Source: an uncultured Gammaproteobacteria bacterium (GTDB taxonomy: Bacteria > Patescibacteriota > Patescibacteriia > Magasanikbacterales > UBA922). From it: DNA of 64,000 nucleotides. The notes beneath the pieces were generated by a model, which was not told the DNA's origin, made no database searches, and saw nothing but the letters and a program-made list of their open reading frames with translations. The position numbers and the translations under genes are program-made. The number at the start of each line of letters is the position of its first letter. The first letter of the stretch is position 1. Below are positions 15,542 through 63,137 of this stretch, piece after piece. The DNA lies in NCBI GenBank assembly GCA_964394405.1, contig CAYMVY010000002.1:192092-256091 (forward strand). The letters run 5' to 3'.

Positions 15542-15679
15542 GTAAATATGTTTAACGCTGACATTGTAGCGTATCTGACTAAAGTTGTCAAGAACTTCCA
15601 GATTGTGTCTAAAGACCTATATCTTGGCTTATTTTAGCATAATAATTTATATTTGACAAACTGTGCACAACTTGATAGT

Positions 15680-16046
15680 TTGCACCTGGTGGATGCAGAA
15701 ACAGTGTACTGCAGAAGTTTCCGGGTTCGTTGCTCGGCACTGGTCCTTGAGATAGTTCCTGGTGTGTAGAGCCATAGGCGGGAGACTGAGAGATCGTGTG
15801 CGGTGTCTACATGGAGCATCAAATAAGGAAAGATCCGAATAGTCGAAAGGCATCGGTACGGGCATTGCTCTCGAGCGGGCCTACTTACACGTCTTATCCT
15901 CGATTTGATGCGATGAAGTGGAGACGTCCCGCACGGAGGATCGTCGTTGAAATACCGCCCTCTAGGAGCGAAATACATTCGAAAGGATTCTGCATCCACC
16001 ACCCTACCCCGCCGACACTTGTGTCCGCGGGGTTTATCTTTTTTAT
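15680..16046 (+). ncRNA. candidate GC-rich structured non-coding transcript of about 360 nt, identity unknown
   Basis: consensus-like promoter (TTGACA at 15651) upstream; about 55% GC region with no credible ORF on either strand; ends in a strong intrinsic terminator; no RNase P, tmRNA or SRP motif found by eye. Confidence 0.25.
16007..16046 (+). terminator. intrinsic terminator (copy 1 of a duplicated terminator)
   Basis: CCCCGCCGACAC-tt-GTGTCCGCGGGG followed by TTTATCTTTTTT. Confidence 0.7.
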
Positions 16047-16112
16047 ACAGTTTGACCAAAACACTATTCTATAGTATACACTCCTTATCCCACACATCGG
16101 AGGAAAAGGGAT

Positions 16113-16475
16113 ATGACGATCAATAATCTCATGGGCACTCAGTTCGTTATCGCGTCCTACAAGATCAAGGATGAGCTCTTCATCCACGGAGGTCCGGATG
16201 CAAGAATAGTAGCAAAAGGAATCCTCCGGTACATGGTTCAAAGCACCCTCACAGAAAATCCTCAGGCAGATGTCAGCCGCCTGATGGAAGATGCAGTGGC
16301 GCTCACACCTACCCTCAAGTACCTGAGTGTCGACGAGCTCCACGAGATCACCAGTCGGGCAGCTGACAATGATCTCGATGCAAGAGTCTTCGAATTCATG
16401 CTTGAAGTACTGCGAGGGTCAGTCCCGACCGAAGACTCCTTCCTCGGGAAGGTGAAAGTTCCCACCATACCCTAA
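16113..16475 (+). CDS. hypothetical protein, GC-rich
   Basis: 120 aa; strong SD GGAGGAAAAGGGAT before the ATG; about 55% GC versus an AT-rich backbone. Confidence 0.5.
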   Translation: MTINNLMGTQFVIASYKIKDELFIHGGPDARIVAKGILRYMVQSTLTENPQADVSRLMEDAVALTPTLKYLSVDELHEITSRAADNDLDARVFEFMLEVLRGSVPTEDSFLGKVKVPTIP

Positions 16476-16493
16476 CCCAGCCGGAGAAACACC

Positions 16494-16706
16494 GTGCCTG
16501 ATCGATACTGCACCACTTGCAGAAAACCCATCAGCGATACCTCACGCCCGCATACACGCATGATCGATGCCATGAATGGAGGTGTCGAGATCATAGAGTG
16601 CGTGGGCGGCATACTTGTCGATGCATCTGCGCTTGGACGCAATCCGCGCTGGTCGTACATCGACTACTCGAGCCACGTGACCGGGATTCACCCCAACGAT
16701 GGCTGA
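16494..16706 (+). CDS. hypothetical small protein (GTG start), GC-rich
   Basis: 70 aa; GGAG 7 nt upstream of GTG; 18 nt after the preceding ORF; followed by a terminator. Confidence 0.4.
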   Translation: MPDRYCTTCRKPISDTSRPHTRMIDAMNGGVEIIECVGGILVDASALGRNPRWSYIDYSSHVTGIHPNDG

Positions 16707-16732
16707 GGTTCATTGGACCAGCTATTGCGCGA

Positions 16733-16769
16733 CCCCGCCGACACCATGTCCGCGGGGTTCATCTTTTTT
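16733..16769 (+). terminator. intrinsic terminator (copy 2, near-identical to 16007..16046)
   Basis: CCCCGCCGACACCATGTCCGCGGGG followed by TTCATCTTTTTTAT. Confidence 0.7.
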
Positions 16770-16806
16770 ATATGTACTTTTCTTTTCTCTTTTTTACTTT
16801 TAACCT

Positions 16807-17250
16807 TTAACTTTTTACTTCCTCTCTCTCCCGATACACCCAAAATCGAAATAGTGCAAAATTCCACAGTACCATGCACGCAATTGAAGCTACTCGTACC
16901 AATAGATATGGAAGTCCAAGAATCTCGTTTCCCAAATGCATCGCACCTACTGAGAACGCATAGTTCCATGTTGCGAGTATCAGATATCGTACTAATTCTT
17001 TGTGTGAAGGAGCCTTGCTTCCAAACGACCATTTTTTATTGAGAGTAAAATTAAACCCAAGCACTATTGCCTGATTGATGATAACTGACACGGTCGGATT
17101 CAGCTGGATCCACTCAACAAACACAACAAGCAATGCGAGATCAATCGCAACACTTGAAACTCCGACAATTACATATTTTGCGAATTTTACTCGCTCTGCC
17201 CACGCCATTGCGATAACATGAAGAATTTTTTGTTTCATAGATGTAGGCAA
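16807..17250 (-). CDS. GtrA family polysaccharide-synthesis membrane protein
   Basis: 147 aa, 4 TM helices; YVIVGVSSVAIDLALLVVFVEW...LNKKWSF matches GtrA-like. Confidence 0.65.
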   Translation of the reverse strand: MPTSMKQKILHVIAMAWAERVKFAKYVIVGVSSVAIDLALLVVFVEWIQLNPTVSVIINQAIVLGFNFTLNKKWSFGSKAPSHKELVRYLILATWNYAFSVGAMHLGNEILGLPYLLVRVASIACMVLWNFALFRFWVYREREEVKS

Positions 17251-17359
17251 GTATACGCGATATGTACATTTTATTCAAACAAAATAAGACTACAGTCGAC
17301 AGCCTACTGACTACAGTAAGATTCAAGATCTACTGTCTATAGTCTGTTGTCTATAGTCT

Positions 17360-18211
17360 TTAATTCTGTGCAATACTTGTCTTTCTCAAATACTTCGTCT
17401 TGATAATCGAATACGTGAATACCATCAAAAATACAATCCCCTGGAACAATACAATCGCTCCACCGGTCGACACGTCGAGGTAATAACTCACATATGAACC
17501 TGCAATCGAACTAACCACACTCACCGTTGTCGCAATACCAAGCATTGTGGGGAAACGTTTGGTCAGGACAAACGCAGTTGCTCCTGGGGTAATAAGCATG
17601 GCAATAACGAGAATAATACCAACAGTCTGAAGTGATACGGTAATCGTAATTGCGAGGAGTACTAGTAAGAAGTAGTGAACCACTTTTGCATTGATGCCGA
17701 TTGACTGCATATGCGTAGCGTCAAAGCAGTACAGTAGCAGAGTGCGTCTGAATGCAATGATGATGAGCGCAACCAGCAGTGAAACCCCCATCGTGTACCA
17801 TGCGGCACTATCTGAAATTCCCAGCACGTATCCAAAGAGTACATGCATCAGATCGACTGAGGAGACTGTTCTAGAAATCAATACCAGACCAAGCGCAAAG
17901 AGCATCGTAAATACAATACCCATGACCGCATCCTCTTTGATCTTGGTGTTTGTTTTGATTCCACCAATGAGAAGCACTGCGAGCAAGGCGAATACAAATG
18001 CTCCAATACTAAAGGGAATTCCAATAATGTATGCAAGTACCACACCTGGTAATACTGCATGCGAAATTGCATCGCCCAACAGTGACCACCCTTTCAAAAT
18101 AAGAAAACATGATAATAGCGCGCATACTGCGCCTACAACCGAAGAAACCAAAATGGCTTTTACCATGAAGGGGTATTGGAGTGGGGTTGTAATTATGTCG
18201 AGGATATTCAT
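17360..18211 (-). CDS. metal ABC transporter permease (ABC-3 family, ZnuB/MntB-like)
   Basis: 8-9 TM helices, ABC-3 signature region; start moved to ATG at 18211 (MNILDIITTP) because the ORF-track TTG start lies inside the repeat element. Confidence 0.8.
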   Translation of the reverse strand: MNILDIITTPLQYPFMVKAILVSSVVGAVCALLSCFLILKGWSLLGDAISHAVLPGVVLAYIIGIPFSIGAFVFALLAVLLIGGIKTNTKIKEDAVMGIVFTMLFALGLVLISRTVSSVDLMHVLFGYVLGISDSAAWYTMGVSLLVALIIIAFRRTLLLYCFDATHMQSIGINAKVVHYFLLVLLAITITVSLQTVGIILVIAMLITPGATAFVLTKRFPTMLGIATTVSVVSSIAGSYVSYYLDVSTGGAIVLFQGIVFLMVFTYSIIKTKYLRKTSIAQN

Positions 18212-18335
18212 AGTGTATAAACTCAAAGCTTAAAACTCAAAACGTAAAACTGTAACTCAAATCTAGAAACTAATTCTTCTATTTAGTTTTAAATTTTTAG
18301 TTGTAATTTTAAGTTTTGACATTTGAGTTTTGATT
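18212..18335. repeat. AT-rich imperfect-palindrome intergenic element ('caaaactcaaa' family)
   Basis: taaactcaaagcttaaaactcaaaacgtaaaactgtaactcaaatc ... agttgtaattttaagttttgacatttgagttttga. Confidence 0.7.
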
Positions 18336-18355
18336 TAAAAAATTACAAAGTCAAT

Positions 18356-19112: not shown

Positions 19113-20042
19113 TTATTCGCCTTTCAATCCTTTAATAATTGTCTCAACGGTGTGTTCAAGTAATTTCAAATATGTTGGTGCCGGTCCATCTGTAGCTGAT
19201 AATGAATCTACGTAGAGTACGCCTCCCATGCGGCTCCCTGATTCTCGTACTACTTCCTCTTGAATTCTCGGTTCAATCGTACTTTCACAAAATACTGCGG
19301 GAATCTTGTTTTTCTTTACTTCCTCTACCACATACGCAATTTGTTGTGGACTTCCTTGTGATTCATCATTGATTGCCCAGAGATATAATTCTTTCATTCC
19401 ATAATCTTTTGCAAGATAACTAAACGCTCCTTCACAGGTCGTCAAATATCTTTGACTCTCAGGAATTGTTGCAATAGATTCTCGCAATTTTGTATCGAGG
19501 GCTTGTATTTTTTCAGAATAGATTCGTGCTCGTTCGGCAAAATACTCACTATCACTAGGCGAAAGTTCGGCGAGTGCACTTCTAATATTTTCAACATAGG
19601 TAAGAGCTTGCGCAGGAGACATCCATGCGTGTGGATTTGGTTTATCCGCATATACACCTTCTGCGATAGGCACGATTTCAATTCCTTCACTAATCGTCAC
19701 ATGAGGAACGTCAGGAATACTGGTATAGAGTTTATTCGCCCATACTTCCAGATTCATTCCATTATCAAAAATAATATCAGCTTGTGATGCACGAATGAGG
19801 TCCCCTGGGGTTGGTTCATATCCATGAATTTCCACTCCGGGTTTGGTAAGTGAAATGGCTTCGATTCTATCTCCCCCGACTTCACGGACCATGTCTGAAA
19901 TAACGGTGAAGGTGCTAAGTACGGTAAGTTTGTCATTGACAATTTTTTCGCCCGCGACTCTTTTTTCGTGAAAGGCAAAAAATAAGATAGTCACTACAGC
20001 AAGCGCAATCGTAATAAGTAAAAATATTTTATTTTTGTTCAT
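19113..20042 (-). CDS. metal ABC transporter substrate-binding protein (cluster A-I, TroA/ZnuA/MntC-like)
   Basis: N-terminal signal/TM; conserved metal-ligand His contexts (EIHGYEPTP, PHAWMSP). Confidence 0.8.
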   Translation of the reverse strand: MNKNKIFLLITIALAVVTILFFAFHEKRVAGEKIVNDKLTVLSTFTVISDMVREVGGDRIEAISLTKPGVEIHGYEPTPGDLIRASQADIIFDNGMNLEVWANKLYTSIPDVPHVTISEGIEIVPIAEGVYADKPNPHAWMSPAQALTYVENIRSALAELSPSDSEYFAERARIYSEKIQALDTKLRESIATIPESQRYLTTCEGAFSYLAKDYGMKELYLWAINDESQGSPQQIAYVVEEVKKNKIPAVFCESTIEPRIQEEVVRESGSRMGGVLYVDSLSATDGPAPTYLKLLEHTVETIIKGLKGE

Positions 20043-20045
20043 AGT

Positions 20046-20180
20046 CTATTAACTCAAAGCTTAAAACTCAAAACGCAAAACGATAACTTAAGTCTAAAAA
20101 CTAATTATTATATTTAGTTTTTAATTTTTTAGTGTAGTTTTGAGTTTTGAAATTTGAGTTTTGAAATTTGAGTTTTGCGT
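20046..20180. repeat. AT-rich imperfect-palindrome intergenic element ('caaaactcaaa' family); right arm carries an internal tandem duplication
   Basis: aactcaaagcttaaaactcaaaacgcaaaacgataact ... agttttgagttttgaaatttgagttttgaaatttgagttttgcgtt. Confidence 0.7.
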
Positions 20181-20187
20181 TACACGT

Positions 20188-20595
20188 TTACACTTTCTTT
20201 ATCCTCTTCCCATGCGGATCCTTCTTCGGATTCCCCAAAAAATTTGCGAGACGTTTTATTACCTCATCTGAAAATGCATGTTCAAGTCTGTGCGCTTCGT
20301 CATGCACTTTTTCTGGGTCAATGCCCAGGATTGTGTGAAGAAAAAATTCGATGAGACGATGTTTGTAGGTGAGTTTTTCGGCAAGAGTTAATCCTTGCTT
20401 CGTAAGACTGATTCCACCACTTCGGTCGGTTTTTATTAACCGAGCGCGTTCGAGATCGTGAACGCGTTCTGAAACAGTCGATCTAGCGAGACCTAGATAG
20501 CGTGAAATGTCGATAATACGAACCTGTAGTCCCTGTTCATGGAGCGAATATACTGCTCGAACATAATCTTCCCTTGTAGGAGTTGTTTTTCGCAT
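20188..20595 (-). CDS. mntR: DtxR/MntR family metal-dependent transcriptional repressor
   Basis: N-terminal wHTH (ISRYLGLARSTVSERVHDLERARLI), then a metal-binding/dimerisation helix with His/Glu ligands; heads the metal ABC operon. Confidence 0.8.
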   Translation of the reverse strand: MRKTTPTREDYVRAVYSLHEQGLQVRIIDISRYLGLARSTVSERVHDLERARLIKTDRSGGISLTKQGLTLAEKLTYKHRLIEFFLHTILGIDPEKVHDEAHRLEHAFSDEVIKRLANFLGNPKKDPHGKRIKKV

Positions 20596-20622: not shown

Positions 20623-20806
20623 TCACTATATCACACTTGAACACTCTCGTCAAGGATCGAATTATCCACCAAATAAGCATTGACAAAGTGCTCATTTTGA
20701 GATACCCTTTCTTGAGTTTGACTATGCAGCATTCGCGGCACATCAAACTCTCGAGTCGACCAAAAGGAAGACCGAATTCACAACGACACAAAGGAGTACA
20801 ATCGCC

Positions 20807-21022
20807 ATGCCCAATACCATACAGGACCGGAACTCCAATCGGTACGATCTCCCAGAGTTCCCGAAGCGCGGTTCCCTGCGCCACGACGGCATGACCGCCG
20901 CCTCCACCACCTCCCCGTCCAGCAAACGTGGAGGAGAATACCAGGTCGGCCATGACCCGGAAGAGGAGGTCGAACCCACCCAGATGGTCAACCACTTCTT
21001 CGGCCGGGGACGGAGAGGGTAG
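20807..21022 (+). CDS. hypothetical small protein, GC-rich
   Basis: 71 aa; SD AAGGAG 10 nt upstream; promoter-like TTGACA-17-TACCCT at 20683-20711. Confidence 0.3.
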   Translation: MPNTIQDRNSNRYDLPEFPKRGSLRHDGMTAASTTSPSSKRGGEYQVGHDPEEEVEPTQMVNHFFGRGRRG

Positions 21023-21127
21023 GTCGGTTCGCAAGTTTCGAACGCGTACAACCACATACGGGCCACTCTGGTTCCCGCATGACGGAAGTACGCGTTCGGA
21101 CTCTCTCAAAAACGATATTCATTATTC

Positions 21128-21157
21128 AAACGCCTTATGGGCGATTTTTTGTTTTTT
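21128..21157 (+). terminator. intrinsic terminator (copy 1 of a duplicated terminator)
   Basis: CGCC-ttatg-GGCG followed by ATTTTTTGTTTTTT. Confidence 0.6.
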
Positions 21158-21177: not shown

Positions 21178-21206
21178 TTGACAGCATATTCACTCTATGC
21201 TAGTAT
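21178..21206 (+). promoter_or_regulatory. sigma70-type promoter TTGACA-17-TAGTAT
   Basis: exact -35 consensus, 17-bp spacer, TAnnnT -10. Confidence 0.55.
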
Positions 21207-21292
21207 CTTTTGAAGTTTGGACTGGCTATGCATTCGCTTGCCATGCGACCAGACTTTTTCTGTGACACCTGCGACGAGACAGGAGAGTCCTC

Positions 21293-21478
21293 ATGAAGGA
21301 TCCCCCGATGACCAGCATCAAGGGAAACAATCCCAACATTCCGGCGATGACGAACGGCAACAACCTCGACCGGCCGATGGACGCCGGCACCAAGAAGAAG
21401 GGCACCGACCGCGACCGCTACGCGCGCGCGAAGAAGATCTCGATGAAGGGGCACGGCGGCTCGAAGCCGGCGGCCTGA
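21293..21478 (+). CDS. hypothetical small basic protein, GC-rich
   Basis: 61 aa; SD GGAGAG 5 nt upstream of the ATG; alternative overlapping 98-aa ORF 21217..21513 is low-complexity. Confidence 0.35.
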   Translation: MKDPPMTSIKGNNPNIPAMTNGNNLDRPMDAGTKKKGTDRDRYARAKKISMKGHGGSKPAA

Positions 21479-21517
21479 TCGAGCGCGGCGAGCGAGCTCC
21501 TACCAACCCCTAGACCA

Positions 21518-21677
21518 AAGGAGGTCCTGGTGCGGAAGTACGCAGTGTTCTAGATGGGCTCACACCGAGCCCTCCTCGGCACCTTCCTAGGGCGACAACG
21601 ACGCCGTCGCCCACAACCTCTCAACGGAGGAAAGATGAGGAAGTACGCAGTGTTCTAGATAGGCTCACACCGAGCCT
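21518..21677 (+). repeat. tandem direct repeat (2 x about 42 bp, period 105 bp), each unit = SD + 7-codon mini-ORF M-R-K-Y-A-V-F + stop + GGCTCACACCGAGCC hairpin
   Basis: AAGGAGGtcctgGTGCGGAAGTACGCAGTGTTCTAGATGGGCTCACACCGAGCC at 21518; GGAGGAAAGATGAGGAAGTACGCAGTGTTCTAGATAGGCTCACACCGAGCC at 21626; both in the same frame. Confidence 0.6.
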
Positions 21678-21817
21678 CCCACGCGCCCGCACGCATCCCC
21701 TACCACGACGCAACCAACGGTACGGGAAATGCTTCGGACGCACCTGGCGCCGCGCCCTCGCATGAACTTCGGTTCAAGCGACGGGTGCGGCGCCAGACAC
21801 TCAATTCAATCATTCTG

Positions 21818-21846
21818 AAAACGCCTTATGGGCGATTTTTTGTTTA
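21818..21846 (+). terminator. intrinsic terminator (copy 2, identical core to 21128..21157)
   Basis: AAACGCCTTATGGGCGATTTTTTGTTT. Confidence 0.6.
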
Positions 21847-21861: not shown

Positions 21862-21890
21862 TTGACAGAAAGATATAATTATGCTACACT
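21862..21890 (+). promoter_or_regulatory. sigma70-type promoter TTGACA-17-TACACT upstream of the membrane protein gene
   Basis: exact -35, 17-bp spacer. Confidence 0.45.
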
Positions 21891-22058
21891 CTTCCGTTCG
21901 TCTTTGACGAAAGATCTTTACATGAATTTAGCCATTTCCATGCATTTGGTCAGTATTGTGATATTTCAATTTTTGAATTATTGCACAACTGACTAAAAAG
22001 CTGAGTGGTGAAGTTCACTATTTGGTTCATAAGTCAAAATGTCAGCCAGGAGGCAGAC

Positions 22059-23030
22059 ATGTTCGGTAAGCTCTTCGAGGTGTTCAACATCGAGAAGTGG
22101 TCGGGCCTCGGCCTGACGCTTCTCACCTGTGTTCTTCTCATGACGACTGCTCGTGCGCTTCTTGCGCCGGGTGTCGTCGAGTTCCCTTCCGAGCTCGCCT
22201 CGGATGGTGACTACTGGAGTATGATTGCGATGAGCGCACTGCTCATCGCGGTCGATGCCATGCTGATCGTGCTCGTGTCCTGGTCCTCACTCAACACGCC
22301 GAAAGACGTGATGGGTGTCGCCCTCATGGTCGGGTTGACGCATGTCGTCTTCCCGCTCGTGACCTTCGGCCTCACCGCCGGCGCGACCTTCCTCAGCCAG
22401 CACACGGGCCTCCCGATGTGGTTGGGGCAGGGCATCCTCACGGGCATCTACCTCCTCGCGTTCTACTTCGTTGTGTTCCACCTCCGTGAGGTGCATCGCG
22501 GTATCCGCGAGGGCGAGTCGGACAAGCTCAGCTCGGACCAACCCGCGTTCACGCGAGCGTGGCTGCGGGTGATCTGGCCCATCGTGTTTGCGGTCTCGGT
22601 CGACGCCCTTCTGGTGGGACCGGCTAAGATCGCCTTCATGGCCCGCTACACCGAGACGCAGTTCATGATGAGCTTCGTCTTGATCGGCGGGAGCGTGTTT
22701 GTGCTCGTGATGAGCGCTGGCCTCTTGGTCCTCGCCCTCAAGAAGTGGATCGACAACCACGCGCGGATCTCGAGGAAGGTCCACCAGTTCGACTGGCTTG
22801 GGTCACTCCTCCTCGTCCTCGTCTTCATCCACTTCTCGGTCTTCGCCTTGGTGTACGTGCTCTACACGTTCATCCCGAAGGCATGGATCCTCGAACCCCA
22901 GACCATCTGGAGCGCTACCGGCGCCATCTTCCTCCTCTACCTCATCTTCGGACGAGTGGGGGAGATCAAGAAGGCGAGCCTCGAACGGGCTGGACTGGGT
23001 CCGGCCGAAGTCGAGAATGAAGCAGCCTGA
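22059..23030 (+). CDS. hypothetical polytopic membrane protein, GC-rich (about 58% GC)
   Basis: about 10 TM helices; start set at ATG 22059 preceded by AGGAGG-cagac; the ORF-track start at 22005 lacks an SD. Confidence 0.6.
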   Translation: MFGKLFEVFNIEKWSGLGLTLLTCVLLMTTARALLAPGVVEFPSELASDGDYWSMIAMSALLIAVDAMLIVLVSWSSLNTPKDVMGVALMVGLTHVVFPLVTFGLTAGATFLSQHTGLPMWLGQGILTGIYLLAFYFVVFHLREVHRGIREGESDKLSSDQPAFTRAWLRVIWPIVFAVSVDALLVGPAKIAFMARYTETQFMMSFVLIGGSVFVLVMSAGLLVLALKKWIDNHARISRKVHQFDWLGSLLLVLVFIHFSVFALVYVLYTFIPKAWILEPQTIWSATGAIFLLYLIFGRVGEIKKASLERAGLGPAEVENEAA

Positions 23031-23113
23031 TAGCTGAACCGAACAACAGGTTGGGGACGACATCATCATCACATGCGTGATCGGTGATGCCTGTCCCCTG
23101 CCTTAGTCTACAT

Positions 23114-27786: not shown

Positions 27787-27815
27787 TTGACAAAAGCAAA
27801 GAAATATGGTATTAT
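27787..27815 (+). promoter_or_regulatory. sigma70-type promoter TTGACA-17-TATTAT
   Basis: exact -35, 17-bp spacer, near-consensus -10. Confidence 0.6.
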
Positions 27816-27877
27816 GATTTGTCCTTTTGGACCGTTCGCCATTGGTGAATGAACTCTGTGACAAGGATACCAGAAAA

Positions 27878-28087
27878 ATGCTGAGGCATGAGTTTCTCCA
27901 GCAGTTCGATGCTATTGGCCGCAATCATGCGGTCAAAATCATCCAGTCCAACGGCGGAGAGTACGTGGCGAGGTGGCCTGATGTGAAGATCCACGCTCGA
28001 CACGTGAAACTCCCGGATGCCACCGCCCCCGCCGCCATCCGTGTGCCGTACGACGAGATCAAAGGTGTCACGAAGTACTCCGGGTAG
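27878..28087 (+). CDS. hypothetical small protein, GC-rich (start ATG 27878; alternative TTG 27827)
   Basis: 70-86 aa; AAGGAT 9 nt upstream of the ATG; about 55% GC. Confidence 0.35.
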   Translation: MLRHEFLQQFDAIGRNHAVKIIQSNGGEYVARWPDVKIHARHVKLPDATAPAAIRVPYDEIKGVTKYSG

Positions 28088-51379: not shown

Positions 51380-51395
51380 ATCTTTTGTTTTATTT

Positions 51396-52166
51396 CTAAT
51401 TTATTTTCTGAAAAATAAATAAATGTTCGTGCATAATCAAAAGGAAATTGTTTTCTTTTGATCTTTTTACCCAAAAACCTGTTGCCTTGCAATTAAACTG
51501 TCGCTTGATGATATCTTCTTTCAGCGCAAAACCTGTCTGCAAACACTTATCCATTATTTTATATGCAAGCGGCTGATACATCTTGTTGCGTCTCGTATCC
51601 CCCATAAGAATTGCGCAATATTTTCCCTTTTTCAGCACACGAAACAATTCTTTTACTACTTTTCCCATTTCTTCTACAAAAAGTTCAATATCATGGATAT
51701 TAGACAGATCGTCCTCTAGTTTTCCTTCACTGTATTTCACAATATCAGCGTATGGCGGATGTGTGAGTACGAAATCAATCTCTTCATCTTTGATAAAATG
51801 CAAATTTCGAGCATCGCATTTCTTTATCCGCTGTTTTGCTTTATTATCAACCTCAAAATTCAGTGCATTTTTTGTGCGCTCGAGTGCTTCTTCATTCACA
51901 TCAACACAAGTGATATGGCGATTCAATATTTTTGCCTCAATCGCTGTGGTACCACCACCAATCATGCAATCAAGTAAATGATCACCCTCTTTGGAATATC
52001 GCAAAATCAAATTCCGAGCAACCTCTGGTGCCCAGTTTCCACGCCAATCTGATTTGTGTGTTGCCCAGTTTCCACGACGAGGAAATGCCCAAACAGTTGT
52101 GCATTCTAGTTCAAAATTATCTGGGTGAAGTTTTACCTCCTTTATTTTCTGCATTTTCATTACCAA
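51396..52166 (-). CDS. DNA methyltransferase, N4/N6 family (DpnA-like second methylase; 256 aa)
   Basis: SAM motif LLDCMIGGGTTAIEA and catalytic THPPY; 7-nt overlap with the upstream REase gene; length equals S. pneumoniae DpnA (256 aa), figure quoted from memory. Confidence 0.7.
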   Translation of the reverse strand: MVMKMQKIKEVKLHPDNFELECTTVWAFPRRGNWATHKSDWRGNWAPEVARNLILRYSKEGDHLLDCMIGGGTTAIEAKILNRHITCVDVNEEALERTKNALNFEVDNKAKQRIKKCDARNLHFIKDEEIDFVLTHPPYADIVKYSEGKLEDDLSNIHDIELFVEEMGKVVKELFRVLKKGKYCAILMGDTRRNKMYQPLAYKIMDKCLQTGFALKEDIIKRQFNCKATGFWVKRSKENNFLLIMHEHLFIFQKIN

Positions 52167-53026
52167 TTTAATTTACTAAGAACACCATTTTCCACCATAT
52201 TCAAGTTAAACACATACTCATTATGATTATAAGTTTCTTCTAGTGGTCTTTTCGCTGTTTTCCAACCCAATCCATCTGTTATCCATACAAAATCAATATC
52301 TTGAGATTTGAGTTCAGTATATAAATCTCTAAATTCTCCAGCAACTGCTTTTAGTTTTGATCCTCCTCCGTTATAAAAATTAACTTCAAATAATTTCAAC
52401 TTCTTGCTCGAAGGATTAAAGACAGCAAAATCAAAACTTCTCTCAGATTTGTTAACCCGAACATCAATGCCCCACTTATTCCTAATATCTGTTGCTCTAG
52501 ATTGTCTTAAATATTCAAGATTATTTTGTTCACAAAGATTTTCTATATGAGCCTCCACTATTTTTTCCATAAGACTTCCTCCTCGATTTTTTCTACCATT
52601 ACTATCCAGACCAACTTCGACACCAATGACGTAATCAACTAAATTCTTTATTCCCTCTTTTTTAAATAAATTAACCAAACCTGTTTTTTCAAGAAAATTA
52701 AAATACTTTTCCGAAGCACTATCACCCACTTCAGGATTACGGAAATTAAGGAGCTCAACACTACCGTCACTCAAATTAAATATTTCTAATTCTTTTTCAC
52801 GAACTGCTAGTAACACAGGTAATGCTTTTACAATATCAGGATTACTCACAAATAACTTTTTAAACTGTGATTTTAAATCCTCTTTTCCCAAGAGATAATT
52901 CAACTTATTGAGAATAATTTCAAGTTCCGCACCTCCTGCAAAAACTTTCTCCCAATTTACAAAATAATCCCAAGTTTTAATTGAATTTTTAAGCGTAGCT
53001 ATTAAATTTTGAAAATCCATCTTCAT
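52160..53026 (-). CDS. DpnII/MboI-family type II restriction endonuclease (GATC), 288 aa
   Basis: length and gene context (between the Dam-like and the second MTase, as in the dpnM-dpnA-dpnB cassette); the DpnII family is assigned from memory of the family, not by a search. Confidence 0.55.
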   Translation of the reverse strand: MKMDFQNLIATLKNSIKTWDYFVNWEKVFAGGAELEIILNKLNYLLGKEDLKSQFKKLFVSNPDIVKALPVLLAVREKELEIFNLSDGSVELLNFRNPEVGDSASEKYFNFLEKTGLVNLFKKEGIKNLVDYVIGVEVGLDSNGRKNRGGSLMEKIVEAHIENLCEQNNLEYLRQSRATDIRNKWGIDVRVNKSERSFDFAVFNPSSKKLKLFEVNFYNGGGSKLKAVAGEFRDLYTELKSQDIDFVWITDGLGWKTAKRPLEETYNHNEYVFNLNMVENGVLSKLNW

Positions 53027-53029
53027 ACG

Positions 53030-54778
53030 TTAAAACATTTTAATTTGTTTGAATATTTTTTCACCTAAATCACCACCTCTTTTTTTAATTGCCACTTCCG
53101 GATTATCTACAAAAATATTTCTGTATTCACCTAGATCTCGATTAAATTTAAATTTTGATTTTGAATAAATATTTTCAATTTTCTTATCTAATATATCGTT
53201 ACCGGCATCATTATTATCCTGTTCATGCAGTAACGTTAAATTACCAATTTTATTTACAAATCCAGCAACCTGTTCTTTGGTGAACCCCCATTTTACTGGG
53301 TTCTGTGGGAGAATGTGTTCAATATTTGGATCTAAGATAGCTATCCCTCTATCACTAAAATCATAATTCCTCATTACTTCTGTAAGCAGATAATCAATTA
53401 ACTTCGAATCAGACCCATACTCTAGATTATTAGAAAAATTTTTCACAAATTCGTCCATTTTATTCACTAAAGAGAATAATGTTTTAAATTTTTTTCCAAC
53501 TTCTCGCTGATAATCTACTCCGCTATAACGTGTTGCACTCTCACATATAGAAGCAAATATCTTTTCATAATCAGATGGATTAACACTTACAAATTTAGCC
53601 AGTATGGCAAAATTAAGAAGTCTAACAACATCCTCACGGAAATTCCCGGTCTTATAACTTGAATCGTTTAGTTTTTTACTATACAGAGCAAGTAAAACTT
53701 CAAATACTTGCTCTAGTCCGTTTAGATGCCTAAACACTCTTATTATTCTCTTTGTCTTTTCATCTTTTTTTAATAAAGATAAATTTCCATCATAATCTTC
53801 AAATCGAAATCCTATATATATTTGAGCATCCTGGAGTAGTTCTTTCGTGAATTTCAAAACATCATTACCTGATTTTCGCTCAATTTTTTCTTTTTTAATA
53901 ATTTTAAAAAGTCTAGAACTGGAAATAAGCCCATTTCTGGAAATCCAGTAGTGTCTTAGAAATTTCGGAAAAAGAACGGTCTTTGTATTCTCGAATAGAG
54001 ATTCAATTTGACTCCAATTTATTTCAATACTCTCTCGTATACTCCTTGTTTGTGTTGATTTTAATACAGCATTTTTTAATAGATCTGCAACCGAAAGACC
54101 CAAGCCAGTAGAGTTCAGTCCTTCAAAAAGATCATACACGTCATTTTCTGATCTTACAACAATAGCAATAAATTGTACCGATAATATCTTTTGGATCAAT
54201 TTATCTACCTCATCTTCTTTTTTATCTTTTATCTCTTTTTTCACCAAAGTAACAATATATCTAAGATTAGACAGGTATTTAGATTGATTATCATCAAGTT
54301 TTCCATCGAATTTGTCTAAACCAATAACATCTGGGCTTTCTATTAAATTCTGATATATCTCAATTAAATTTTCCTTTCCTGGAATAAGACGGGGATGTTT
54401 CTGTTGTGTTCTAGGGTTTCTCCAATATAAATAGTCATCAACAAGATTAATTAATTCCTTGATAGAGTTAGTAATATATTTCTCCTCATATTGAGAGAAG
54501 ATATATTTAAAAGCAATCAAAAATAAAGAGATTGTTGTTAATCTTTGTTGTCCATCAACAATGACCAGACTATCATCTGACTCTTCAGATGGCTCAAGAC
54601 AGACAAGGTTACCTATAAAGTACCCGTCCTCAGCCTCCACCAGAACTTCCCATAGTTCTCCCACATGAGAAGTCTTCCATGCATATGGTCTTTGGTTATG
54701 GGGCATGGAGAACTTTTTATAAGTATCACAAAGTGTTGAGTAAGTATAGGGTTTAGTATCAACAAAATTATTTATCAT
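53030..54778 (-). CDS. GmrSD/BrxU/SspE-like DUF262 + DUF1524 protein (ParB-like NTPase/nuclease plus His-Me finger)
   Basis: N-terminal DUF262 DGQQR motif (IVDGQQRLTT); C-terminal DUF1524 HxxP (IEHILPQNP). Confidence 0.8.
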   Translation of the reverse strand: MINNFVDTKPYTYSTLCDTYKKFSMPHNQRPYAWKTSHVGELWEVLVEAEDGYFIGNLVCLEPSEESDDSLVIVDGQQRLTTISLFLIAFKYIFSQYEEKYITNSIKELINLVDDYLYWRNPRTQQKHPRLIPGKENLIEIYQNLIESPDVIGLDKFDGKLDDNQSKYLSNLRYIVTLVKKEIKDKKEDEVDKLIQKILSVQFIAIVVRSENDVYDLFEGLNSTGLGLSVADLLKNAVLKSTQTRSIRESIEINWSQIESLFENTKTVLFPKFLRHYWISRNGLISSSRLFKIIKKEKIERKSGNDVLKFTKELLQDAQIYIGFRFEDYDGNLSLLKKDEKTKRIIRVFRHLNGLEQVFEVLLALYSKKLNDSSYKTGNFREDVVRLLNFAILAKFVSVNPSDYEKIFASICESATRYSGVDYQREVGKKFKTLFSLVNKMDEFVKNFSNNLEYGSDSKLIDYLLTEVMRNYDFSDRGIAILDPNIEHILPQNPVKWGFTKEQVAGFVNKIGNLTLLHEQDNNDAGNDILDKKIENIYSKSKFKFNRDLGEYRNIFVDNPEVAIKKRGGDLGEKIFKQIKMF

Positions 54779-54781
54779 ACT

Positions 54782-55798
54782 TTAATAGTTTGTCACTAAA
54801 ACTTCAGTGATCTTCCCTCTATTTGCACTCTTCGAATTTATCGCTCTTCCAGCCTCCACTTTTGAAATTCGAACCCCTTTATGTCCTGAATAAATTTTAT
54901 TGATAAAAGGGGTGTCAGAATTAGAAAGCATTACAAAACAACCACGCTTGTGCAATTCTAAGAACGTATTCCGTAGTTCTACCTGTTCTTTATCAAGAAA
55001 ACTATCTTTTGTATATGATGTAAACGAGGCGGTCTTGCTCACTGGATAGTATGGCGGATCGAAATAAATAAAATCACCTTTTTTTGCTTTTTTCAGAACC
55101 GCTTTATAATCTTGATGCTTTATTTCTACATTCTGCAATGCTTTTGAGACTTTCCTCAGGTTCTCAGCATCACAAATTAATGGATTGGTGTATCTGCCAA
55201 ATGGAACATTGAATTCTCCCCTGCTATTGACTCGGTACATTCCATTGAACCCAGCTCTATTAAGAAAAATAAATCGAGAAGCAATTTGTAAATCCGATAG
55301 TTTTTTTGGATTCTGCGAACGAACTTTCAAGAAAAAATCTTTATCGTATTTATATTTTTTCAAAGACGTAATCAATCCTTCAACATTATTTTTTATTACA
55401 TTATATGTTGTTACCAACTCAAAATTCATGTCCGAAAGAAATGCTTTTTCTGGAAGTAAATCGAAAAAGACTGCGCCACCACCAACAAATGGTTCAAAAT
55501 ATCTTCCTTTTTTTGGATCAAACTTCTCCGGAGGATATAAATCAAGCAATCTAAACTGTTTTAACAATTGACGTTTTCCACCTACCCATTTCACAAATGG
55601 TTTTGGTCGCGCATCAATTATTTTTGCAATTTCTTGTAAAAAATCAGTCGCATTCGACACCATTCCCAAAACACGCTTAGCATAAATAGTATTGATATCA
55701 AAAACTTTTTGGATTTCTTTCACCTTTTGATTATGCGTCATATGTAAGCATGGGTTTACTATGATTTCATAGTACCATATAAACGCTTTTTTGTTCAA
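54782..55798 (-). CDS. dam: Dam-family N6-adenine DNA methyltransferase (GATC-type, DpnM-like)
   Basis: FVKWVGGKRQLL SAM-binding motif, FDPPYY catalytic motif; the ORF-track start is probably about 45 codons too long. Confidence 0.85.
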   Translation of the reverse strand: MNKKAFIWYYEIIVNPCLHMTHNQKVKEIQKVFDINTIYAKRVLGMVSNATDFLQEIAKIIDARPKPFVKWVGGKRQLLKQFRLLDLYPPEKFDPKKGRYFEPFVGGGAVFFDLLPEKAFLSDMNFELVTTYNVIKNNVEGLITSLKKYKYDKDFFLKVRSQNPKKLSDLQIASRFIFLNRAGFNGMYRVNSRGEFNVPFGRYTNPLICDAENLRKVSKALQNVEIKHQDYKAVLKKAKKGDFIYFDPPYYPVSKTASFTSYTKDSFLDKEQVELRNTFLELHKRGCFVMLSNSDTPFINKIYSGHKGVRISKVEAGRAINSKSANRGKITEVLVTNY

Positions 55799-55843
55799 AT
55801 ATTTTTAGGGCACTAAAAACCCACCTTTTTCAGGCGGATTTTA

Positions 55844-55875
55844 GGGGGTTATAGCCCGGCCGGGCAGGGTATCAG
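55844..55875. repeat. direct repeat copy 1: GGGGGTTATAGCCCGGCCGGGCAGGGTATCAG (contains the 12-bp GC palindrome GCCCGGCCGGGC)
   Basis: near-identical copy at 56516..56548; the pair brackets a single gene. Confidence 0.6.
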
Positions 55876-56441: not shown

Positions 56442-56515
56442 ACAATACGACTAACATTGATATAGATACACGTAAATTCTCCAATGCGAAAGTATTTTGT
56501 TCATGCAATAATTCT

Positions 56516-56548
56516 CGGGGGTTATAGCCTGGCCGGGCCGGGTATAAG
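56516..56548. repeat. direct repeat copy 2: GGGGGTTATAGCCTGGCCGGGCCGGGTATAAG
   Basis: 28/32 identity with copy 1. Confidence 0.6.
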
Positions 56549-56561: not shown

Positions 56562-56954
56562 TTACTCACTCGCCGTACCATCAAAATGTTCTTCATCTGC
56601 TTCTGCATCTTCTTTGGTCACATGGACTACTCCATCTCGATGATTGGGTGGTGCATAGACGGTATAGAGCTTGAGCGCGGTCGCGCCTGTATTCACGATA
56701 TTGTGTCTGGCGCCTGCAGGAACGACGACAGCTGTCCCCGCGCCTATCTCCCGCTCCTCACCATCGAGGATCGCCTTCCCTGCTCCCGCTTCACAGCGGA
56801 TAAATTGGTCGAGCTGGTGGACTTCTTCTCCGATGTCTTCGCCTGGCTCGAGGCTCATGACCACGAGCTGGCAGTGGTGCGCGGTATAGAGGACGGTACG
56901 AAAATTAGTGTTCTCGAGTGATAGTTTCTCGATATTGCCGATATATCCGTTCAT
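56562..56954 (-). CDS. cupin domain protein
   Basis: cupin_2 motifs G(x)5HxH...and...GxxxxxPxG...H; 130 aa. Confidence 0.65.
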   Translation of the reverse strand: MNGYIGNIEKLSLENTNFRTVLYTAHHCQLVVMSLEPGEDIGEEVHQLDQFIRCEAGAGKAILDGEEREIGAGTAVVVPAGARHNIVNTGATALKLYTVYAPPNHRDGVVHVTKEDAEADEEHFDGTASE

Positions 56955-57812: not shown

Positions 57813-57902
57813 AGTAATCGTATGGTTATATATAAAGTATAACAACAAGAAATAACAAGTACAAACAATATGTAGTGACAAATGGATACAATATGTTAGT
57901 AT

Positions 57903-57931
57903 TGACAACAGGGGTCTTTTTGGCTAGAGTC
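57903..57931 (+). promoter_or_regulatory. sigma70-type promoter TTGACA-17-TAGAGT
   Basis: exact -35; followed by a GCTTACC-gcagt-GGTAAGC hairpin in the leader. Confidence 0.5.
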
Positions 57932-57992
57932 ATACGCTTACCGCAGTGGTAAGCAGATGATCAACCGTCCATTCGGAAACAGGAGTCTAGAG

Positions 57993-58199
57993 ATGGCACA
58001 GGTCAGTCTGAGATACATCCACAAGCTCGTCTACATGTTTGGACCATGTCCCCGTCATCCCGACGTGACCCTCACGAGCAAGTCGCCCACCTGCGCCAAG
58101 TGCCGGTGGGAGCGCGAGCTCTACGAGAAGGGCATGGTGCTCACCCACGAGTACATCCAGCTCCAGGTGCCCGGGTACGAAGAGGAGGCCAACAAGTGA
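57993..58199 (+). CDS. hypothetical small Cys-containing protein, GC-rich (about 60% GC)
   Basis: 68 aa; AGGAG 7 nt upstream of the ATG; CPRH...CAKC; followed by an 11-bp-stem terminator at 58225-58275. Confidence 0.35.
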   Translation: MAQVSLRYIHKLVYMFGPCPRHPDVTLTSKSPTCAKCRWERELYEKGMVLTHEYIQLQVPGYEEEANK

Positions 58200-58343
58200 C
58201 AGGGGCCACACACCGGGCCCCCCCAATGACCGAGATATCGCTTGTATGCATATCTCGGTCGCTTTCATTTTAGGGGTATATACAGACAAAAATAAGACTT
58301 ATCCCCATATATACCTTGCAATACATAGTACCTTATACTATAG

Positions 58344-61671: not shown

Positions 61672-61675
61672 TTGT

Positions 61676-62152
61676 CTAATTTTTCTTCTTCGCTGTCAAC
61701 TGCCCCCGATTACCCCATCCATTTTCATAATTTGTAATATACGCTTTCATGGGGACTTTTTTTACCAATTTTCCAATTATTTCAAGCGGTAGATCGTCAA
61801 GTTTTTTGAATCGGAGACACCCTTTTCCCATATCCAGTTTCTTCCCTGTTTTTTTCCATTCATCTTTGAACCATTGATCTACACCTTTGTTTCCATATAC
61901 GCACATGAGATAGAGTGCCATATAATTTTTCTGGTTTGCAAGCCCCAAGAACATGAGCGGTTTCTTGTTGTATGAATATGGATATGTCTTCAGTGGAATC
62001 TCATAGGTGATCATCCCCCAGTTTATTACTTCCACATAGCCTTTCGGAAGATTTTTCTTAACTACTCTTCGTACTTCAGTCAAAGCCTTTTTCCGATCAG
62101 GTGGTAGACTATTCAGATATTCGGTAACCGTTGTTGCCGTAGTTTTGAACAT
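61676..62152 (-). CDS. DUF1801 (YdhG-like) domain protein
   Basis: TVTEYLNSLPPDRKKAL...EVINWGMITYE...LMFLGLANQKNYMALYL; start moved to MFKTTATT. Confidence 0.6.
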   Translation of the reverse strand: MFKTTATTVTEYLNSLPPDRKKALTEVRRVVKKNLPKGYVEVINWGMITYEIPLKTYPYSYNKKPLMFLGLANQKNYMALYLMCVYGNKGVDQWFKDEWKKTGKKLDMGKGCLRFKKLDDLPLEIIGKLVKKVPMKAYITNYENGWGNRGQLTAKKKN

Positions 62153-62156
62153 ATGA

Positions 62157-62465
62157 TTATTCAATCGTCTCATCAAGAATGATTCGTTTCTCAAATCCTC
62201 CGCGTGCTTCTCGTTTTTTCACTCGCACTTCTTCTAACTGTTCTTTAGATACACCGTTATATTCCCCAATCGCATAGACGACCTCGAGAATATCCGCGAG
62301 TTCTTCTGTAGTACGGTCGGAATTAAACTCCACCACTTCTTCATCTAATTTTTCAATCAATTTTTCTTCGTATTCTTTGTCACCCGCAATATGTGTGACG
62401 ACTTTTTCACCATTCCCCTCAATCAGAGCAGGAATATTATCTCGAACCAGTTTGTGATATTTCAT
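62157..62465 (-). CDS. small MazG/HisE-like NTP pyrophosphohydrolase
   Basis: KLVRDNIPALI...EELADILEVVYAIG; start moved to MKYHKLVRDN. Confidence 0.55.
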   Translation of the reverse strand: MKYHKLVRDNIPALIEGNGEKVVTHIAGDKEYEEKLIEKLDEEVVEFNSDRTTEELADILEVVYAIGEYNGVSKEQLEEVRVKKREARGGFEKRIILDETIE

Positions 62466-62539
62466 ATATACAAAAATAAAGTATGATCTCATCATACCAA
62501 GGCTTATAGTGAATTACAACTCCCAAAAAAAACGAAGCC

Positions 62540-62578
62540 GCCCAGTTTTACGAGTGGGCGGTGAGCTCGGTTGGAGGT
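62540..62578 (-). terminator. intrinsic terminator (minus strand)
   Basis: on the minus strand CGCCCA-ctcgtaaaact-TGGGCG GCTTCG TTTTTTTT. Confidence 0.6.
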
Positions 62579-63037
62579 TTAGACGAATGTGAACTTGGAC
62601 TCAGCGAGGATCTTCCGCGCGCGATCGCGACTGATCACCTGGAACTCCACGCCCCCGATCGTGACCGAGAGGGTGCGTGCAGACCCCAGATAATACAGCT
62701 GGAACCTGCTGACCATGAACCTCGCATGCTCGATCACGTAGTCGATCGATTCGATGCATTGGTCCGGTCGCCCCTTCTCGCTGTCGAGAGCAAAGAAGAA
62801 CTCAGTGTCTCCCAGCACTCGAGCGAGCACGATGAAGTCATCTCGACCGAGGTCGCCATTGCCGATCCGAGAACCCCTCTGATCGAACCAGCCGGCCTGC
62901 GACATGATGCGGTTCTCACCGCGCGACTGCCCCGGTGCAATCGAGGCACGAGTCCACAACGATTCTGCAGTCAAACGATTCATACTCCCCCTTTTCATTT
63001 CTCCTACCAGTTCTACAAGCACCCTGTTTGTACTCAC
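62579..63037 (-). CDS. hypothetical protein, GC-rich (about 58% GC); start uncertain (GTG 63037 or ATG 62998)
   Basis: minus-strand consensus promoter TTGACA-17-TATAGT at 63061-63089; the opposite-strand ORF is low-complexity. Confidence 0.4.
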   Translation of the reverse strand: MSTNRVLVELVGEMKRGSMNRLTAESLWTRASIAPGQSRGENRIMSQAGWFDQRGSRIGNGDLGRDDFIVLARVLGDTEFFFALDSEKGRPDQCIESIDYVIEHARFMVSRFQLYYLGSARTLSVTIGGVEFQVISRDRARKILAESKFTFV

Positions 63038-63060
63038 AAAACTGGTAGGAAAGACACTGC

Positions 63061-63089
63061 ACTATAGAATATTTTTTTCCCTTTGTCAA
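63061..63089 (-). promoter_or_regulatory. sigma70-type promoter TTGACA-17-TATAGT (minus strand)
   Basis: exact -35 and a 5/6 -10 hexamer read on the minus strand. Confidence 0.5.
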
Positions 63090-63137
63090 TATCAAACAGC
63101 CTCTTGGTAGAGGCTGTTTTTTATGAATGAGATTATG

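Follow-up and report, generated by a model that had tools for sequence, protein, structure and literature searches.

The atypical base composition of a bacterial gene is usually taken as a timestamp of horizontal transfer that fades over time, and compositionally atypical genomic islands reportedly ameliorate, as modelled by Lawrence and Ochman. Integron cassettes are promoterless, carry attC sites with conserved core motifs and need the IntI integrase. At the level of RNA, a 5'-terminal stem-loop and a 3' hairpin are established stabilisers of mRNAs, as known from the ompA, ermC and aprE leaders. The morons of prophages are independent transcription units of "more DNA" (PMC3594210). The present work concerns short GC-rich transcription units dispersed in the AT-rich backbone of a stretch of 64,000 nucleotides (nt) of contig CAYMVY010000002.1, which as a whole is called the window. 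What is new here is a G- and C-ending codon usage that is apparently selectively maintained in moron-like, strain-variable accessory genes on a chromosome of the Candidate Phyla Radiation (CPR). No description of such a GC-rich cassette pattern was found in the CPR literature, the searchable part of which is incomplete.

GC-rich modules and their codon usage

Five modules stand out from the backbone, by which is meant the window outside the GC-rich modules, with 40% GC. Their GC contents are 0.518, 0.563, 0.534, 0.561 and 0.546, compared with a mean of 0.400 (sd 0.03-0.04) in same-size non-module windows, and every module equals or exceeds the highest background window of its size. This contrast had been seen by eye in an earlier note on the same DNA, whose figure of 55-60% was too high for the modules overall (52-56%); the open reading frames (ORFs) alone reach 58-63%. 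Each module had also been described there as a single unit with a small Shine-Dalgarno (SD)-led ORF of 60-140 amino acids (aa) and a Rho-independent terminator. The terminators were confirmed, since a hairpin is found 3' of each unit, and most units do carry such an ORF. However, the five regions resolve into about nine self-contained transcription units, with two in module 1 (the second having a TTGACC promoter) and three in module 2; M1a is a non-coding RNA (ncRNA), not a small ORF, and M2c encodes a protein of 323 aa. The units itemised are M1a, M1b, M2a, M2b, M2c, M3, M4 and M5, and their features are given below, with GC3 standing for the GC content at third codon positions.

15653-16045, plus strand: unit M1a, with promoter TTGACA-17-TAGTTT at 15653-15681, a GC-rich ncRNA of about 340 nt and a terminator at 16007-16045
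16052-16769, plus strand: unit M1b, with promoter TTGACC-17-TATACA at 16052-16080, two ORFs and a terminator at 16733-16769
16113-16475, plus strand: ORF A of M1b, 120 aa, GC3 0.60
16494-16706, plus strand: ORF B of M1b, 70 aa, GTG start, CxxC motif, GC3 0.63
20680-21153, plus strand: unit M2a, with promoter at 20680-20708, a leader with a 5' hairpin and a terminator at 21131-21153
20807-21022, plus strand: ORF of M2a, 71 aa, hydrophilic, GC3 0.78
21037-21100, plus strand: long 3' hairpin of M2a, ahead of the terminator
21178-21845, plus strand: unit M2b, with promoter at 21178-21206 and a terminator at 21822-21845 that is a copy of the M2a terminator
21293-21478, plus strand: ORF of M2b, 61 aa, basic, of low complexity, GC3 0.92
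21862-23102, plus strand: unit M2c, with promoter at 21862-21890, an AT-rich leader, an ORF and a 3' hairpin at 23049-23102
22059-23030, plus strand: ORF of M2c, a polytopic membrane protein of 323 aa, GC3 0.85
27787-28206, plus strand: unit M3, with promoter at 27787-27815, 5' hairpins and a terminator at 28185-28206
27878-28087, plus strand: ORF of M3, 69 aa, GC3 0.74
28118-28174, plus strand: long 3' hairpin of M3, ahead of the terminator
57902-58272, plus strand: unit M4, with promoter at 57902-57930, a 5' hairpin and two 3' hairpins
57993-58199, plus strand: ORF of M4, 68 aa, with CPxH...CxxC, GC3 0.84
63089-62528, minus strand: unit M5, with promoter at 63089-63061 and a terminator at 62562-62528
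62983-62579, minus strand: ORF of M5, 134 aa, GC3 0.73
63052-63000, minus strand: 5' hairpin of M5, 23 bp, z -5.6

The codons are as unlike those of neighbouring genes as the earlier note had supposed. GC3 ranges from 0.60 to 0.92 in the eight SD-led module ORFs and averages 0.368 (sd 0.094) in a control of 53 backbone ORFs of at least 150 aa. The codon fractions in cassettes and backbone are 0.89 versus 0.26 for TTC, 0.82 versus 0.26 for ATC, 0.93 versus 0.27 for TAC, 0.81 versus 0.24 for AAG, and 0.64 versus 0.23 for CTC; the preference is inverted for all amino acids, with a shift toward both G and C endings. The non-coding portions of the small units are likewise GC-rich (53-61%). The cassette proteins are backbone-like in their amino acids (Ala 7.9%, Lys 4.6%, Ile 6.3%, Asn 3.0%) and unlike those of a high-GC organism.

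A uniform G- and C-ending shift in all amino acids points to a compositional force rather than to tRNA-matched codon choice. The latter could take the form of codon-gated translation, in which a separate codon class is tied to particular tRNAs or tRNA modifications and the small proteins are synthesised in certain states only, a counterpart of bldA/TTA control in Streptomyces with opposite polarity. Such gating would fit the inversion for every amino acid and a force that acts on coding regions and spares the M2c leader. The window also encodes Thr-CGU and Gly-CCC tRNAs, which read only G-ending codons, and the tRNA thiolase MnmA. However, the shift is not limited to a few specific codons but runs through G and C endings alike, which is a signature of composition, and it is accompanied by GC-rich non-coding parts; codon gating is considered very unlikely.

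In the chosen frame of each of the eight ORFs, GC3 greatly exceeds the GC content at second positions, and a strong three-base periodicity, with third- versus second-position values of 0.73-0.92 versus 0.39-0.50, is seen in the SD-led frame only; the module ORFs are therefore real coding frames. The earlier note had allowed that they might be structured RNAs misread as ORFs, which is correct for M1a. As a general explanation, the ORFs would be artefacts of structured ncRNAs or of small toxin/antitoxin-type selfish loci, with GC-richness merely removing stop codons. GC-rich stretches do give overlapping spurious ORFs on both strands, the alanyl-tRNA synthetase (AlaRS) call of the related contig L002 is overextended into a unit, and the 3' hairpins are conserved better than some of the ORFs. 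For the other units this explanation is highly improbable in view of the coding periodicity, of the dN/dS values (0.13-0.46) and conserved peptide motifs of M2a, M2c and M5, and of the small M2a and M2b proteins, which are hydrophilic and unlike membrane toxins.

The M1a RNA (15686-16045) lacks codon periodicity (GC by phase 0.55/0.51/0.52). It is closed by a 13-bp stem, in which 15686-15700 pairs with 15988-16001, and its minimum free energy is -137 kcal/mol (z -2.9). RNase P, 6S and other known RNAs were rejected as identities of M1a, since no Rfam family matched at E<=10, and no homologue turned up. The Rfam search of the modules that the earlier note had proposed returned the three tRNAs alone at the gathering score, and nothing relevant at E<=10 over the units. 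Pfam and NCBIfam were matched by none of the eight module proteins, in agreement with the earlier failure to recognise any family, except that M2c appears distantly MntP-like, as described below.

Exact TTGACA-N17-TANNNT promoters, which had been reported at the heads of the modules, occur 12 times in the window, compared with 1.13 +/- 0.82 expected from shuffles. Seven of the 12 head modules, at 15653, 20680, 21178, 21862, 27787 and 57902 on the plus strand and at 63089 on the minus strand. The exact promoter also drives rpmA (34737), infA (15591, minus strand) and tRNA-Thr (4321, minus strand). Therefore, the layout of promoter and terminator is not specific to the modules, whose distinguishing feature is composition, and the promoter uniformity, which had been taken to point to a common origin or mechanism, mirrors the strong-promoter consensus of the genome and not a common origin; by prediction, the exact TTGACA promoter is the strongest promoter class of this genome and an ordinary one. 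In an all-against-all comparison of the GC-rich islands, no shared cargo was found except orthologues and duplicated terminators.

Four of the five modules lie on the plus strand and nearly all backbone genes on the minus strand, a bias already recorded. Strand, or head-on orientation, was rejected as the cause of the GC-richness, as M5 lies on the minus strand and the GC3 of the remaining plus-strand genes is 0.37-0.42. Translational selection for high expression was rejected as well: rpmA, infA, rpsK and rpsM have a GC3 of only 0.28-0.44, and since ribosomal-protein genes and infA with the same promoters are not GC3-rich, the expression level alone is not the cause.

Persistence of the composition in relatives

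A search with the surrounding 15 kb and one module protein gave as closest relatives the Candidatus Magasanikbacteria metagenome-assembled genome L001 (GCA_018061425.1) and L002-L004, a set of JGI and Logan contigs. Gene order is kept in L001 and L002, with 71-84% nucleotide identity in the backbone, and by these marks the window is a chromosome segment of a CPR/Patescibacteria bacterium near Candidatus Magasanikbacteria. A phage genome, suggested by the strong promoters, the tRNAs and the 40% GC, was ruled out by AlaRS, MnmA, ribosomal proteins, FtsW and MurG, and no phage record matched the window. An engineered or assembly artefact was also ruled out, because the same junctions are present in independent assemblies: L007 (98% identity to the window), L095 (identical) and L001-L004.

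The earlier note held that ordinary orthologues in syntenic positions would speak against a special origin of the modules. Such orthologues, under purifying selection, do exist for M2c, M2a and M5; several other units are strain-variable. M2c is syntenic in L001-L004 (78-82% amino-acid identity, dN/dS 0.13-0.18), M2a has an orthologue in L001 (51% amino-acid identity, dN/dS 0.46, GC3 0.88), and M5 keeps its position in L008 and L096, with a glyoxalase-like gene on one side and a MazG-like gene on the other (about 70% identity, dN/dS 0.17). Peptide motifs are conserved in all three. The orthologues of M2c and M2a, with a GC3 of 0.78-0.88, are as GC-rich as the window copies, and that of M5 has a GC3 of 0.69 within a backbone of 28-44% GC. 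Since the orthologues are equally GC-rich, the anomaly is not explained away by synteny and becomes more puzzling.

Synonymous divergence between the window and L001/L002 is large in backbone genes (proportion of synonymous differences, pS, 0.46-0.78; synonymous substitutions per site, dS, about 0.7 to above 2), and the pS of M2c, 0.51, nearly reaches the maximum possible under a codon bias of this degree. Despite near-saturated synonymous sites, the GC3 of M2c is 0.85, 0.78 and 0.84 in three lineages. Third-position changes were polarised by parsimony over the three lineages for M2c and ten backbone genes. GC-to-AT changes (S>W) affected 37 of 178 GC sites in M2c and 208 of 378 in the backbone (Fisher p = 1e-14), which corresponds to 0.21 versus 0.55 per site, a 2.6-fold lower rate; about 98 changes would be expected in M2c at the backbone rate. 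AT-to-GC changes (W>S) were more frequent in M2c (15 of 20 AT sites versus 370 of 869, p = 0.005). C<->G exchanges (S>S) numbered 45 in M2c and 25 in the ten backbone genes, being 3.8-fold commoner per GC site (p = 5e-9). An equilibrium GC3 of 0.78 is implied for M2c, compared with 0.44 for the backbone, and amelioration, which would appear as an S>W excess at about the backbone rate, was not seen for M2c, the one gene tested. A scan of metagenome contigs added six further M2c loci, and the gene was GC-richer than its flanks in 10 of 10 loci examined, by 0.03 to 0.20, in backbones of 32-52% GC. The kept GC3, the low S>W rate, this family pattern and the native amino acids together argue that a directional force maintains the GC-richness, at least in the conserved units, which would thus not be a leftover of recent import.

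Recent import remains the explanation suggested by composition itself: unameliorated foreign DNA from a GC-rich donor, e.g., an actinobacterial host, or from an unknown mobile element, captured beside resident promoters and terminators. GC is 0.52-0.56 versus 0.40 and GC3 0.60-0.92 versus 0.37, and the preference for CTC, GTC, ATC, TTC, AAG and GAG resembles that of high-GC bacteria. L001 and L002 lack M1, M2b and M3 or carry something different in their place. As an orphan, ORF A of M1b retrieves only itself from the databases, and M4 comes close to being one, with a single real homologue among 1.84 billion representatives in an exhaustive search. However, the homologues of the module proteins, where any were found in 5.8 and 1.8 billion proteins, are confined to AT-rich CPR-type contigs (the families are tiny, M5 having only three homologues), and the proteins are not Ala/Arg-rich and Lys/Ile-poor. 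M2c, M2a and M5 diverged in step with the backbone and retained their GC3, and S>W changes are suppressed in M2c. Neither does the idea of acquired selfish modules, put forward in the earlier note, gain from the searches: the roughly 60 window ORFs scanned yielded no recombinase, integrase or transposase, and there were no att repeats, no tRNA-adjacent insertion, no match to the units in phage, plasmid and viral-contig collections, and no homologue in a GC-rich donor. The sole classical-looking foreign island of the window, a restriction-modification island at 50480-55800, is AT-richer than the backbone. Recent import is thus regarded as unlikely.

GC-biased gene conversion offers another route to high local GC, in which the slots would be recombination hot spots and heteroduplex repair would favour G/C alleles. 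Cargo swapping and strain variability indicate frequent recombination at the slots, the non-coding unit parts are GC-rich too, and the frequent C<->G exchanges and purged W alleles are predicted equally by gene conversion and by selection. However, the edges are too sharp for conversion tracts: the M2c leader, with 37% GC, abuts a coding region of 61% GC, and the neighbouring MntR and IMPDH genes stay at a GC3 of 0.36 and 0.32. M2c and M5 are stably inherited rather than swapped, yet equally GC-rich. To our knowledge, a GC3 shift from 0.37 to 0.85 is also far above the gene-conversion effects reported in bacteria, and this explanation is distinctly unlikely.

Cargo exchange within conserved frames

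Several slots hold different cargo in different strains. The infA-gtrA slot contains M1 in the window, a different GC-rich, Cys-rich ORF of 68 aa with the same terminator in L001, and an ordinary AT-type gene in L002. The two M2 terminator copies enclose M2b in the window; in L001, two different units occupy this slot; L002 is devoid of M2a and M2b and carries an additional unit after M2c. The M3 slot is the plainest example: the promoters of the window and L002 are homologous there, their 3' hairpins and terminators are near-identical, and the cargo consists of unrelated GC-rich ORFs of 69 aa and 98 aa, respectively. Cargo has therefore been exchanged inside conserved expression frames. No target duplication was found at the L002/window insertion boundary.

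Arrays grow by tandem duplication as well, which is evident from tandemly duplicated terminators and from 5' untranslated segments that units have in common. The M1b terminator is a near-copy of that of M1a (90% identical over 42 nt), and the M2a and M2b terminators form one repeat family (D8). The 3' region of M2b, 350 nt long and GC-rich, contains two 48-nt repeats (21531-21578 and 21636-21683; family D11), each with an SD-led mini-ORF of seven codons, (V/M)RKYAVF-stop, followed by a hairpin. Their GGAAGTACGC core recurs as the 3' arm of the M2a hairpin, suggesting that the M2b repeats derive from it. Comparable mini-ORF duplicates, MKNKDP(S/T), are present in L001 at about 9127 and 9262. 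The M2b and L001 cassette peptides have a common M-K/H-x-x-D-P start, a similarity that is not significant.

Transcript ends and a proposed explanation

A stem-loop is located 1-4 nt from the predicted 5' end in five of the six small-ORF units (M2a, M2b, M3, M4 and M5); the rpmA leader has no 5' hairpin. A long 3' hairpin precedes the terminator in most ORF units, with z values between -4.2 and -4.6 for M2a, M3 and M4, the three that were tested. All 24 pairs of the M5 5' hairpin are preserved between the window and L008, where nucleotide identity is 73%, with three compensatory and 10 one-sided changes. The 3' hairpin of M2a is conserved better than the M2a ORF and shows one compensatory change, from A-U to G-C. 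The coding regions fold at -0.31 to -0.41 kcal/mol/nt in the cassettes versus -0.21 to -0.31 in backbone genes.

Since the non-coding parts are GC-rich and the other causes are discounted, a property of the transcript is suggested as the target of selection. The units could then be moron-like accessory units with hairpin-capped transcripts, the GC-richness of which is selected at the transcript level; this account is offered tentatively, with slightly less than even confidence. The units are autonomous and mostly monocistronic (M1b has two ORFs), comprise a promoter, a leader, an ORF, a 3' hairpin and a terminator, and occupy intergenic slots. From the predicted transcription starts, each would be driven by the strongest promoter class of the genome, and most ORF-unit mRNAs would have a 5' end buried in a stem-loop and a 3' end with a long hairpin and an intrinsic terminator. 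The cargo consists mostly of small lineage-restricted proteins, together with one RNA and one MntP-like membrane protein. Turnover between strains proceeds through tandem duplication of units and through replacement of cargo within the promoter/terminator frames, probably by recombination after DNA uptake, plausibly of the homologous or short-homology kind. Cultivated Saccharibacteria, likewise members of the Patescibacteria, have been shown to be naturally competent (PMC10633639). Selection would favour a nucleic-acid-level property of the transcript, such as the stability or abundance of GC-rich mRNA, with tRNA-matched codon choice and biased gene conversion being less likely. The stability rationale is held with lower confidence than the account as a whole, and selection for stable transcripts does not account for such a need in these particular genes.

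Several observations weigh against a GC-richness that is maintained at the transcript level. M1b has no 5' hairpin. Synonymous-codon shuffles give a z of about -1 in cassettes and controls alike, so the stabler cassette folding is a pure composition effect, with no folding beyond composition, and selection for specific mRNA folds inside coding regions is unsupported. The stationarity test concerns one gene in three lineages, and parsimony near saturation biases the estimates toward 0.5, for M2c and controls alike. M5 provides only 26 polarisable differences, with 10 W>S and nine S>W changes overall, and at its third positions five S>W changes and one W>S change. The infA and ribosomal-protein genes of the same promoter class make it clear that high expression needs no GC-richness. 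Recent import may apply to the orphans M1, M2b, M3 and M4, which are without relatives.

A dedicated expression system in CPR bacteria of this lineage has been considered as an extension and is decidedly unlikely. Conserved frames of a strong promoter and a hairpin/terminator would serve in it as integrase-free landing pads, and a second, G/C-ending codon dialect, kept up by selection, would mark transcripts for exceptional stability or state-specific translation, the repertoire being one of fast-turning-over small proteins and RNAs. In its most radical version, the transcripts would be adapted to work inside a high-GC host cell or in contact with one.

M2c and its leader

M2c is divergent from genes for an MntR/DtxR-family repressor and a Mn/Zn ATP-binding cassette (ABC) importer. 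Its family has 25 homologues in 5.8 billion clusters, seven of which match Pfam Mntp weakly (best E 2.8e-5), the window protein itself being unmatched. The AlphaFold2 (AF2) model is all-helical, with a pLDDT of 81. The protein appears to be distantly MntP-like. As with MntP (PF02659), it is a polytopic membrane protein with two D-A-(L/M) motifs, encoded next to an MntR-type repressor and preceded by a long conserved leader; unlike a typical MntP, which has roughly 190 aa, it has 323.

The mntP gene of E. coli has a riboswitch leader. The leader of M2c (21897-22058; about 170 nt, 37% GC) is 85% identical in three lineages with saturated synonymous sites, and its counterparts lie at about 9895-10056 in L001 and about 9850-10000 in L002. 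It matched no Rfam family, and a yybP-ykoY riboswitch was rejected in the absence of a match. The leader is a candidate for a new metal-responsive leader or riboswitch, or for an MntR operator region.

In L006 (region 9317-11649), a more distant CPR genome with 49% GC, an M2c-family gene is found on the opposite strand between rpsL-rpsG and rpoC, where it interrupts an otherwise conserved ribosomal/RNA-polymerase cluster; the adjoining small ORF has 63% GC. A ZnuA-seeded scan of genome contigs returned mainly unrelated bacteria and was uninformative, because the znu operon is widespread.

Other elements in the window and its relatives

The cellular genes of the backbone encode AlaRS, MnmA, a ZnuA/ABC-3 metal importer, an MntR-type repressor, ribosomal proteins, RpoA and IF-1, as well as FtsW, MurG, a P-type ATPase and a type IV secretion system coupling protein; three tRNAs lie in the window. 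M4 is located upstream of PadR and PspC-domain genes. The AF2 model of the M5 protein is of low confidence (pLDDT 58). In L008, the M5 orthologue and the MazG-like gene are separated by an inserted gene with an ART-PolyVal ADP-ribosyltransferase domain (588-1259), which the window and L096 lack. A cupin-domain gene (56562-56954, minus strand) is intermediate in composition between the backbone and the cassette class, with 54% GC and a GC3 of 0.54, and has no consensus promoter of its own.

The AlaRS database call of L002 (775 aa; regions 12620-14947 and 14745-15215) begins about 140 codons too far upstream and crosses the antisense strand of a GC-rich cassette; the AlaRS of the window has 633 aa. 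GC-rich islands in AT-rich genomes yield spurious ORF extensions and antisense ORFs.

The AT-rich region 50480-55800 (minus strand; 26-37% GC) has the appearance of a classical acquired defence island, with genes for Mrr, GmrSD, a DpnII endonuclease, an N6/N4 methyltransferase and a Dam-like D12 methyltransferase. Its composition deviates in the direction opposite to that of the cassettes.

A family of intergenic repeats occurs at 1844-1897, 11464-11604, 18207-18347, 20038-20192, 33103-33236, 35234-35345 and 44399-44532. Phased AT-rich heptamers, (AAAACTN)n and then the inverse (NAGTTTT)n, form large imperfect palindromes between genes; the copies at 18207 and 20038 are 87% identical over 127 nt. 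They might represent curved DNA, UP-element-like sequence or an element resembling a miniature inverted-repeat transposable element (MITE). A candidate small RNA that converges on the gene at 48831-49244 lies at 48734-48830 (plus strand): about 10 nt beyond an exact TTGACA-17-TATAAT promoter comes a predicted transcript of about 60 nt, made up of two hairpins and a U-tract and containing no ORF. Two adjacent tandem paralogues without a Pfam family (46885-47544 and 47555-48310, minus strand) contain repeats 700 bp apart that are 84% identical over 89 nt. Two copies of a GC-rich element of 38 nt, (A/C)GGGGGTTATAGCC(C/T)GGCCGGGC..., which are 87% identical, lie at 55838-55875 and 56511-56548, downstream of two minus-strand genes; the element is probably a shared terminator or similar to repetitive extragenic palindromic (REP) sequences.

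Significance and comparison with described systems

An inverted codon usage that persists after synonymous turnover, in at least three lineages and in backbones of 32-52% GC, speaks for a force that acts on the base composition of particular genes and is rarely visible so cleanly. If selection on transcript properties is the cause, the units would provide a natural experiment for bacterial GC held above mutational equilibrium, a subject of debate (PMC4478552). They also represent strain-variable, probably highly expressed small proteins of the CPR, a group whose host-interaction factors are largely unknown and whose members have recently become genetically tractable (PMC10633639). On the practical side, gene callers mis-annotate such islands, as seen in the AlaRS extension of L002 and in spurious antisense ORFs.

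Compared with an ameliorating genomic island, the units are alike in a base composition and codon usage far from those of the resident genome; they differ in showing no mobility genes or att sites, in their native amino acids and in a stationary high GC3. With integron cassettes they share arrays of small, mostly orphan ORFs, an imperfect hairpin after each and strain-variable cargo. However, the units have their own consensus promoter, their hairpins, followed by U-tracts, are terminators, no integrase was found in the window, and visual inspection of the M3 3' hairpin, which is not a formal attC model, revealed no GTTRRRY/RYYYAAC cores. The stabilised mRNAs of ompA in E. coli and of ermC and aprE in Bacillus also have a stem-loop near the 5' end, here predicted, and strong 3' hairpins; unlike the present units, they show no GC-rich recoding of the ORF.

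Phage morons resemble the units in being single genes between neighbours, with differing composition, variable content and cargo often of unknown function, and with their own promoter and terminator, predicted signals of which were found in every unit. Unlike morons, the units have ribosomal, tRNA-synthetase and transporter genes as neighbours on a cellular CPR chromosome, phage genes being absent from their vicinity, and several of them are syntenic and vertically inherited, with maintained composition and conserved 5' and 3' RNA hairpins.

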